DNA of 64,000 nt. Source: Verrucomicrobiota bacterium (GTDB lineage: Bacteria; Verrucomicrobiota; Verrucomicrobiia; Verrucomicrobiales; V1-33). The translations under genes were made by a program, and so were the position numbers. The stretch is taken from the NCBI GenBank assembly GCA_003402705.1, contig QQNF01000004.1, forward strand, positions 10,877 through 74,876, given 5' to 3'. The notes under the pieces were generated by a model, which saw nothing but the letters and a program-made list of their open reading frames with translations, did no database searches and was not told where the DNA came from. Positions 29,547 through 30,240 of the stretch are shown piece after piece; the first letter of the stretch is position 1, and each line of letters opens with the position of its first letter.

Positions 29547-29586
29547 GCCTCATGGAATGGTTAAGGCTGCGTCACGACATAGATGG

Positions 29587-29766
29587 TTATTGATTGCCCT
29601 TGGAAAATAGGCCTCTGACCCGCTTCAATGCGCGCAGTTGCTCCTTCAGACGGGCATTTTCCCCCTCAAACGCCTCAACCCTCTCCACCCGCTGCAATAG
29701 CTGCTTCCCCAGCGCCACCAGTTCCTCGACGGAACAGGAGTCCAAATAATTGAAGTCGACAGCCAT
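29587..29766 (-). CDS. Small coiled-coil ORF (59 aa); possible remnant of an IS66-family transposase leucine-zipper N-terminus
   Basis: Below the track cutoff. MAVDFNYLDSCSVEELVALGKQLLQRVERVEAFEGENARLKEQLRALKRVRGLFSKGNQ*. The ...ENARLKEQL...LF..K pattern recalls the IS66 TnpC N-terminal region (memory only). No transposase body follows. Confidence 0.3.
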   Translation of the reverse strand: MAVDFNYLDSCSVEELVALGKQLLQRVERVEAFEGENARLKEQLRALKRVRGLFSKGNQ

Positions 29767-30057
29767 GCGCCCAGAATACTTAAAAATTCCGGAAAATCTT
29801 TCAGCCGCTAATCAATTACCATAGATGCTCTAAATAAACACCTCTTGAAATTACTGCTATAAACCGGCAATCACAGCACACCACTCAGGGCGTCTCCCAT
29901 CTCCCCTCAGCGCCACCCTTAACTCGCATCCGCCTCCCGGCACATGCTTCGAACCCGCCACCGCCCCGCAGGGACGACCGGCCCACCAACCCCTCTCCGC
30001 ACCCGCTCAACCTCCACCGCTGCTAATTTTCACTTCTCACTCCCCACTTTCCCAAAC

Positions 30058-30134
30058 TGGTCGGGCTGGCGGGATTCGAACCCACGACCTCTTCGTCCCG
30101 AACGAAGCGCGCTACCAAACTGCGCTACAGCCCG
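30058..30134 (-). tRNA. tRNA-Pro (anticodon CGG)
   Basis: Hand-folded cloverleaf: CGGGCTG TA GCGC AGTTTGGTA GCGC G CTTCG TTCGGGA CGAAG AGGTC GTGGG TTCGAAT CCCGC CAGCCCG A CCA, 77 nt. Confidence 0.93.
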
Positions 30135-30240
30135 ATTCTCCAGCTCCCGATCGGAAGCTCACCATAAAGATGCCGGATTCCCCCGTCGTGTCAAACCGGG
30201 AATGCCTTGATTCAGGTCCCCGCTTGCTTCCCAAAGGCCC

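Follow-up and report, generated by a model that had tools for sequence, protein, structure and literature searches.

Positions 29,547-30,240 of a 64,000-nucleotide (nt) segment of contig QQNF01000004.1, hereafter the window, very probably contain the right-hand boundary of a chromosomal genomic island that is flexible and varies between strains. The host is a freshwater Verrucomicrobiales (Akkermansiaceae-like) bacterium. In the sequences compared, the island occupies a hotspot between a tRNA-Pro gene (anticodon CGG) and a conserved gene for a protein of 299 or 306 amino acids (aa), here called the 299/306-aa gene, and it is of the additive, cassette-bearing kind known beside tRNA genes in Alteromonas (PMC3698932). 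Strand composition steps abruptly at this boundary because unskewed island DNA meets a strongly strand-biased core. We infer that the island sequence has spent most of its history outside the strand-bias regime of the host, either because it arrived late or because it has been overwritten repeatedly by recombination with a wider Akkermansiaceae allele pool. Its gain, loss and remodelling would proceed through homologous recombination and deletion, not through an integrase, with the conserved flanks, flanking repeat blocks and paralogous cassettes as candidate recombination substrates.

We located the compositional step by fitting a two-segment likelihood model to the counts of G versus C (maximum-likelihood change point, log-likelihood gain 772; feature coordinates are collected in Table 1). 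Bulk plus-strand GC skew is +0.049 at 1-29,396 and -0.339 at 29,397-64,000, and 1-kb windows on the left (+0.049 +/- 0.054, n = 29) show zero overlap with those on the right (-0.338 +/- 0.078, n = 34; Mann-Whitney p = 1e-11). The contrast is resolved within ~300 nt. The step coincides with the 5' end of a histidine-kinase gene and precedes the 3' end of tRNA-Pro by 400-700 nt, which puts it on the left margin of the interval 29547-30240 or slightly outside that margin. An earlier sequence-only reading of this DNA had noticed the abrupt change, which is real, and its six hand counts of G and C on 60-nt lines are all exact (left of the boundary, line 1021 G20/C16, line 20041 G21/C19 and line 25021 G27/C8; right of it, line 31021 G10/C32, line 33001 G15/C27 and line 55021 G17/C27). 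It had also placed the 3' end of tRNA-Pro (30058) facing the locus, and both ARAGORN and Rfam agree that this end points left, towards an island of giant genes.

The third positions of codons separate the two sides in the same way. In core genes on the minus strand, the third base on the coding strand is G at a frequency of.655, T at.171, C at.120 and A at.054; in core genes on the plus strand it is C at.684, A at.136, G at.114 and T at.066, a complementary composition. This mirror relationship means that the bias follows the DNA strand, not gene orientation, and on the core side the third codon positions of the plus strand are overwhelmingly C whichever strand codes. Plus-strand GC skew at third positions (GC3 skew) is -0.5 to -0.85 in the core for both gene orientations and +0.04 to +0.33 in the island. 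All genes left of the boundary lie on the minus strand, and the cassette genes among them have C at.449, G at.311, T at.159 and A at.081. The earlier observation that minus-strand genes prefer C-ending codons on the left and are almost purely G/T-ending on the right is therefore upheld in sharper form (C.45 on the left; G.66 and T.17 on the right). The GC content and the third-position GC content (GC3) of the island are similar to those of the core.

The strand bias of the host is of the kind attributed to replication, and the G-rich minus strand is presumably the leading strand here. Its magnitude is exceptional, ~34% in bulk and ~0.75 at third positions, whereas typical bacterial GC skew is ~2.5% (SkewDB, PMC8941118). 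Some other Verrucomicrobiales metagenome-assembled genomes (MAGs; L013, L015 and L016) show skews of similar size, and we found no description of extreme GC skew in Verrucomicrobiales in the literature. Discontinuities in GC skew have been used as records of horizontal transfer, inversion or misassembly (PMC8941118), and, as with the discontinuities in SkewDB, a local departure from the replichore-wide skew here marks DNA with another history; the difference lies in the size of the background skew, ~2.5% there and ~34% in bulk or ~75% at third positions here.

We compared the junction with the same site in close relatives, which were reached via dapA cluster members (P0185, P0196) and homologues of the 306-aa gene and share about 94-95% core identity with the window. 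The window itself belongs to a 127-kb MAG contig with locus tags DVB22_ and proteins RFC52624-RFC52631, and its nearest relatives among named organisms are MAGs of Verrucomicrobiales and Akkermansiaceae. The relative L180 (core identity to the window 94.2%; positions 1,109,727-1,130,608 of the 3.35-Mb contig Ga0621872_00004, JGI 3300071567, with tRNA-Pro at ~1.117 Mb) has the same arrangement of alr (alanine racemase) and tRNA-Pro as the window, and the cassettes are absent. To the left of its tRNA-Pro, ~0.7 kb of unique sequence is followed by 3.6 copies of a 144-nt tandem repeat and by housekeeping genes in the order 306-aa gene, GFO_IDH, purT, dus, DUF179 and trpD. The plus-strand GC3 skew of these left-flank genes is -0.66 to -0.82, and bulk skew is -0.27 to -0.45 throughout the 20.9 kb of L180.

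A second relative, JAIXPK010000055.1 (JAIXPK55; 25,561 nt, joined from L189 and L191 through an identical 555-nt overlap), holds a complete 16.7-kb island between the 299-aa gene and tRNA-Pro (21,731-21,807), consisting of one cassette and three small genes. Its skew is -0.33 to -0.46 at 1-5,000, -0.12 to +0.15 at 5,001-21,000 and -0.25 to -0.45 from 21,700 onwards, so that an unskewed block stands between skewed flanks. In L178, L179, L181, L186 and L187, an orthologue of cassette 1 (92-93% nucleotide identity) directly adjoins tRNA-Pro, without the histidine kinase (HK) and response regulator (RR) genes that lie between them in the window; the cassette 1 orthologue in JAIXPK55 has ~84-86% nucleotide identity. 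L165 has a D-gene remnant at the site, followed by an A gene, and L188 departs from the others at the far end, where it encodes RCC1+S74 and PATR proteins. The window itself carries the HK and RR genes, then at least two cassettes and part of a third. Of the core flanks, the right one is alr-dapF-dapA and the left one, in L180, L188 and JAIXPK55, comprises the 299/306-aa gene, GFO_IDH and purT; the window ends before it reaches the left flank of its own island.

Every alignment between the window and a relative stops 4-6 nt past the 3' end of tRNA-Pro, a sequence that is identical in all 8 of the 8 strains or contigs for which downstream sequences were aligned. Past this breakpoint, what some strains still have in common is limited to 20-45 G-rich nt that are loosely conserved and, on the minus strand, include a T-run. 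The junction of the window is found in other material as well. A 16.9-kb JGI contig from another sample has the window gene order RR-HK-59aa-alr-dapF-dapA onwards, L001 (99.96% identical) spans HK, spacer and tRNA-Pro, other-sample short contigs match 27,833-30,137 at 99.3-99.96%, and ten or more contigs from other samples or strains link alr-tRNA-Pro with cassette genes. Further afield, scans of genome and metagenome contigs for alr gave, among the matches listed, relatives at most 50% identical and without synteny, and in genus-level relatives with alr 61-65% identical (P0004, P0006) tRNA-Pro is not beside alr.

The site is thus variably occupied, with core genes on both sides and deviant composition between them. 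Since the locus is present, absent or replaced and both flanks have the same sign of skew, these comparisons point to a strain-variable island at a fixed hotspot. The sequence-only reading had raised an island boundary as one of two explanations and had proposed comparing the junction in related genomes; the absence of the cassettes from L180, the unskewed block in JAIXPK55 and the varied content elsewhere all favour that explanation. A locus syntenic and vertically inherited in all relatives, which would have spoken against it, is not what we find given L180, yet the site is occupied in most sampled strains. A long-lived variable hotspot therefore fits better than a single recent insertion.

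How the site varies can be read in part from its ends. In the window proteins that were scanned, Pfam gave no integrase domain, and the recorded genes of the complete JAIXPK55 island include none either. The 3' end of tRNA-Pro (16-30 nt, 2-4 mismatches) has no second copy in JAIXPK55; in the window it has no match of at least 20 nt, the only matches being two of 16 nt on the opposite strand with 2 mismatches. The earlier statement that neither an integrase nor an attachment (att) duplicate is visible in the window is therefore correct. JAIXPK55 carries a composite repeat (~100-340 nt) in direct orientation at both ends of its island, composed of CTTCTCA heptamer runs and a ~100-144-nt unit that appears to contain two short palindromes. 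The unit also occurs at the empty site of L180 and at the left boundary of L188; Rfam gave no match to it, and the rest of the core sequence compared showed no further copy. A search of the junction and of the L180 repeat region against Rfam gave the tRNA as its sole match. In the window, CTTCTCA-like heptamers are present in the C-rich spacer at 29851-30057, and positions ~29,947-30,052 show a weak low-complexity similarity to the island-flanking repeat of the relatives (relaxed blastn, 66-68 nt, 74%, to the left copy of JAIXPK55 and to L188); the likeness of this tRNA-side spacer to the repeat block is suggestive only.

Remnants of genes speak for deletions in the other strains. JAIXPK55 aligns with the window up to 27,758 and so keeps ~113 nt of the RR 3' end, and L165 and the L178-type strains have ~90-nt pieces resembling the 5' ends of HK and A1. 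On this evidence the arrangement of the window type, which includes HK and RR, would be ancestral and the others independent deletion derivatives.

Additive flexible genomic islands beside tRNA genes, and giant-protein islands, have been described in Alteromonas macleodii (PMC3698932), as has recombination in replacement islands (PMC4033161). The locus described here resembles these islands in its fixed, tRNA-adjacent site and variable cassette number (PMC3698932, PMC4033161), in its giant or cell-surface-type cargo and in its presence, absence and replacement among strains (PMC3698932). It differs in that no integrase, integron, transposase or conjugative module was found, and in the ~100-340-nt composite repeat, not an att site, that flanks the island in one relative. 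Four-gene A-B-C-D cassettes are not described for the Alteromonas islands, and here skew alone reveals the island (PMC3698932).

Cassette 1 is orthologous among strains, which makes the island older than the strain split. Even so, the island is more diverged than the core: identity between the window and JAIXPK55 is 86% for the island and 95% for the core. We polarised third-position singletons and counted them on the plus strand. On the window and L179-type branches of the island, G was lost 49 times and gained 17 times, and C was lost 32 times and gained 26 times (Fisher p = 0.037). In the core (30,053-33,903 versus five relatives, all branches, with substitutions on the window's own branch not polarisable), G was lost 11 times and gained 23 times, and C was lost 55 times and gained 14 times (p = 6e-06). 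The island counts give a weak signal that the island may be drifting slowly towards the host skew.

Several points weigh against the interpretation of the locus as a strain-variable island of foreign composition. The amelioration signal rests on 104 substitutions and is confounded by a general GC-to-AT bias. The core singletons erode the core's own skew through their excess of C losses, which hints either that simple mutational equilibrium does not hold for the extreme bias of the host or that there is a strong GC-to-AT bias among consensus-level polymorphisms. Four of the five sampled lineages carry the locus at this site, with cassette 1 orthologous at ~85-93% nucleotide identity; being older than the strain radiation, the locus is a poor fit to recent foreign DNA and calls for the extra assumption of continuing allele import. 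L180 could have lost the locus secondarily instead of preserving an ancestral empty site. In the genome of the window, the island ends on its far side beyond the window, where an integrase or att site is possible, and all comparison sequences are metagenomic assemblies.

A related explanation, which we consider on balance unlikely, is that the locus is an old resident, kept unskewed within an exceptionally strand-biased chromosome by continual recombination with a family-wide pool of Akkermansiaceae cassette alleles, and not a recent arrival. Consistent with this, the site is shared by lineages whose cores are 5-6% apart, island alleles differ by up to 14%, and the family of the cassette protein B forms a continuum from 99% to 68% identity. 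Were this so, the contrast in skew would be a gauge of gene flow and would not record how long ago the locus was inserted.

Strain-variable occupation at a tRNA gene could also arise from a classical integrase-mediated element. Integrative islands that target tRNA genes carry an integrase and are bounded by attL and attR, which contain the duplicated 3' end of the tRNA; this is the pathogenicity-island paradigm. The locus shares with such islands and prophages a tRNA 3' end that faces the island, a break in homology within 6 nt of it, atypical composition, presence in some strains and absence from another, and cargo proteins that resemble tail fibres. A prophage-like element or integrative and conjugative element inserted into the 3' end of tRNA-Pro, with its integrase and attL beyond the left edge of the window, is nonetheless improbable. 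The complete JAIXPK55 island has no integrase-domain gene and no room for one, and JAIXPK55 contains no copy of the tRNA 3' end (at least 16 nt, up to 2-4 mismatches). The tRNA-proximal 200 nt of the window are host-like in composition, no other phage genes accompany the cassettes, the cassette protein B1 has no relative in IMG/VR, and the cassettes are old, divergent paralogues (34-49% aa identity). The sequence-only reading had seen in this junction the classical geometry of a tRNA-targeted island. The geometry stands, in that the tRNA 3' end abuts the island; the mechanism lacks support, for neither a recombinase nor a tRNA-derived att repeat is found even in JAIXPK55.

A native, vertically inherited locus, left unskewed by selection on the codon usage or amino-acid content of its giant and fibre genes, would account for the same site being occupied in most strains, for the wide distribution of the B family in Akkermansiaceae and for island GC and GC3 levels close to those of the core. 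We regard this as highly improbable. Third-position composition in the core is set by the DNA strand, so that coding-level selection is negligible against strand bias there, and four unrelated gene families of the island, and in part the HK and RR genes too, depart from the core pattern. The locus is absent from L180, and the island is more diverged than the core.

The alternative that the sequence-only reading had set beside an island boundary was a switch of replichore, with the tRNA-Pro region as the replication terminus and the left side belonging to the other replichore. The sign of the skew does change, from +0.05 to -0.34 in bulk and from ~+0.2 to -0.75 at third positions, and it also changes near alr in three distant relatives (L012, L018 and L019). 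The magnitudes are not mirrored, however: GC3 skew on the left is +0.04 to +0.33 (~+0.17) where +0.75 is expected. Close relatives show no change of sign, L180 and JAIXPK55 being strongly negative on both sides of tRNA-Pro, and the distant relatives have no synteny to the window around alr. In the island, the polarised substitutions remove more G from the plus strand than they add, where a leading plus strand would show the opposite. The unmirrored magnitudes and the shared sign of the two flanks in the relatives refute a replichore switch, which we consider barely credible.

Inverted host DNA was rejected on the same ground, as it would give a plus-strand GC3 skew of +0.75 and not ~+0.17; inversion and an opposite replichore are also at odds with third positions in the island, where T exceeds A, whereas in core genes coded on the lagging strand A exceeds T. 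The sign changes in the three distant relatives (3 of ~18, alr ~42-51% identical, change within a few kb of alr) may be due to chance, or to islands or inversions being common in skewed genomes.

An assembly chimera, in which two organisms were joined through a conserved tRNA gene of a short-read MAG contig, is the least credible explanation of all: the window does come from a MAG contig, and several independent contigs end at or near tRNA-Pro or in A1 (L001 ends 3 nt past the tRNA 5' end), but the 16.9-kb contig of another sample has the same order across the junction and so excludes an artificial join, ten or more contigs from other samples or strains carry the same linkage, and the composition step lies 400-700 nt away from tRNA-Pro.

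Table 1. Features of the island, its boundary and the repeat units in relatives (window coordinates unless a relative is named).
Feature	Position	Strand or orientation	Basis and remarks
A3, start of third cassette, cut by window edge	2-439	minus	at least 145 aa; 88% aa identity to A1
Cassette 2	464-13868	minus	old paralogue of cassette 1
D2 giant protein	464-8932	minus	2822 aa
C2 with Peptidase_S74 domain	8877-11219	minus	780 aa; Pfam S74
B2	11269-12951	minus	560 aa
A2	12948-13868	minus	306 aa
Cassette 1	13969-27579	minus	ORFs (open reading frames); plus-strand GC3 skew +0.04 to +0.33, no host skew
D1 giant protein	13969-22755	minus	2928 aa; PHROG virion and tail repeat domains
C1 fibre-like protein	22932-24896	minus	654 aa
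B1	24770-26422	minus	550 aa
A1	26419-27579	minus	386 aa
LytTR-family RR, paired with HK	27646-28440	minus	Pfam Response_reg, LytTR
LytS/YehU-type sensor HK	28437-29546	minus	Pfam His_kinase, HATPase_c
GC-skew change point	29347-29664, best 29,397	none	two-segment likelihood, G versus C counts; interval is the 2-lnL (log-likelihood) support
Conserved 59-aa ORF	29587-29766	minus	called as a gene in independent contigs
AT-rich segment upstream of 59-aa ORF	29767-29850	none	GC 0.37
C-rich host-like spacer adjoining tRNA-Pro	29851-30057	none	GC 0.62, skew -0.55
Homology breakpoint	30052-30057	none	blastn ends 30,052-30,054 for L165, L178-L187, JAIXPK55
tRNA-Pro (anticodon CGG)	30058-30134	minus	ARAGORN; Rfam RF00005, 68 bits
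alr (alanine racemase), first core gene on right	30241-31362	minus	Pfam; plus-strand GC3 skew -0.75
JAIXPK55 repeat copies, left	4,699-5,343; 6,121-6,184	direct	~80-95% identical to 21,500-21,615
JAIXPK55 repeat copies, right	21,299-21,360; 21,500-21,615 (reference copy)	direct	~80-95% identity
Repeat unit, tandem array at L180 empty site	L180 6474-6982		sequence comparison
Repeat unit at L188 left boundary	L188 2274-2634		sequence comparison

The island in the window consists of tandem cassettes of four genes (A to D) and a tRNA-proximal module. It measures at least 30 kb in this genome and, because A3 is cut at the window edge, runs past position 1, which places its far end outside the window. 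Proteins of cassettes 1 and 2 share 34-49% aa identity and are thus old, divergent paralogues. Genes A and B have no family match, and the N-terminus of the gene B product resembles a signal peptide. Homologues of B number 1,245 across the continuum of identity, most of them unnamed and several labelled as Akkermansiaceae MAGs, and some lie on long contigs (P0247 on 5.9 Mb, P0220 on 222 kb and P0264 on 136 kb); an AlphaFold model of B1 built with 23 homologues was poor (predicted local distance difference test, pLDDT, 56; predicted template modelling score, pTM, 0.35). B1 has no relative in IMG/VR, and the cassette proteins have no match in PADLOC.

C1 and C2 match NCBIfam Bdello_MAT_N at E 1e-9 to 1e-10 and 37-41 bits, under the curated cutoff of 60 bits. 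C2 also matches the PDB entries 8ond (Bd2133) and 8oml and the MYRF ICA domain, and has PHROG tail-fibre matches. We take Bd2133, from its locus-tag name, to be a Bdellovibrio protein. Gene D encodes phage-virion-type repeat domains, and the fibre-like and giant proteins of the cassettes look secreted or surface-exposed. The Bdello_MAT_N, 8ond and 8oml, S74 and tail-fibre matches liken C1 and C2 to the MAT fibres of Bdellovibrio and to S74 phage tail fibres (PMC10769870), a likeness that concerns the cargo only. The differences are that the MAT_N scores are below cutoff, that the verrucomicrobial host is not known as predatory, and that the C genes here stand in cassettes with a giant protein and two other proteins (PMC10769870).

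The LytS/LytTR pair has a plus-strand GC3 skew of -0.12, between the island and core values, and together with the 59-aa ORF it makes up a tRNA-proximal module that occurs only in window-type strains. The spacer between HK and tRNA-Pro (29547-30057) is 511 nt long with a GC content of 54%, compared with 62.6% for the whole window, in keeping with the ~500-bp AT-richer spacer of the sequence-only reading. No sigma-70-like consensus was found in its AT-rich segment (29767-29850), and a promoter and terminator scan of 29,300-30,400 gave nothing above shuffled expectation.

The 59-aa protein encoded in the spacer has an identical copy on 8 contigs and a close variant on 14 (20 or more contigs in all) and is annotated by JGI as UPF0335-family. 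Its best Pfam matches are GapR_DNA-bd (E = 0.067) and K-box (E = 0.088), and its product is probably a coiled coil. The possible IS66-like remnant that had been suggested between tRNA-Pro and the locus found no IS66-related match in Pfam, NCBIfam, PHROG or PADLOC. We rejected such a remnant at 29587-29766, as the ORF is intact, conserved on 20 or more contigs and without IS66 similarity.

The right side of the boundary is made up of housekeeping genes, among them alr, dapF, dapA, those for RNase PH and asd, recD2, a hisA-like gene, cysH, sucD and a resistance-nodulation-division (RND) efflux pump. The GTG start of alr is fixed by a 93% identical orthologue (P0001), which makes the window alr 373 aa long; an exact protein look-up returned no identical record for window dapF, A1 or the 373-aa alr.

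Within the core side, the region 45,782-51,755 has weaker skew and lower GC3. It contains a tgt-methyltransferase fusion at 46540-48738 (GC3 skew -0.34), an McrBC-type restriction pair at 49132-50974 (GC3 0.66-0.69) and a 249-aa ORF with no family match; the genes of this region are candidates for older, partly ameliorated acquisitions. Near window position ~34,306, relatives carry a 488-aa pyrroloquinoline quinone (PQQ) beta-propeller gene between those for RNase PH and asd (L178 11,938-12,990). In the window and in one window-type contig ~1.05 kb of this gene are missing and a 126-aa ORF stands there instead. The JAIXPK55 island, for its part, includes a DUF4145 gene between its giant gene and a repeat block (L189 6370-7014) that matches PADLOC PD-T7-4 (E = 1e-8) and is a candidate anti-phage gene.

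In summary, one island boundary can be fixed within a few nucleotides for the annotation of this genome, and a false lead is removed, that of an origin or terminus at this coordinate. With a GC3 skew of ~0.75, the host serves as a highly sensitive natural probe for DNA whose history differs from its own: in such a host, islands, older and partly ameliorated acquisitions, and remnants are visible from composition alone, and population metagenomes could serve to measure how fast island DNA approaches the host bias. With its tandem cassettes of fibre-like and giant proteins, and with variation between strains for which no integrase was found, the island offers a lead on how surface structures diversify in abundant Akkermansiaceae-like bacteria of fresh water.

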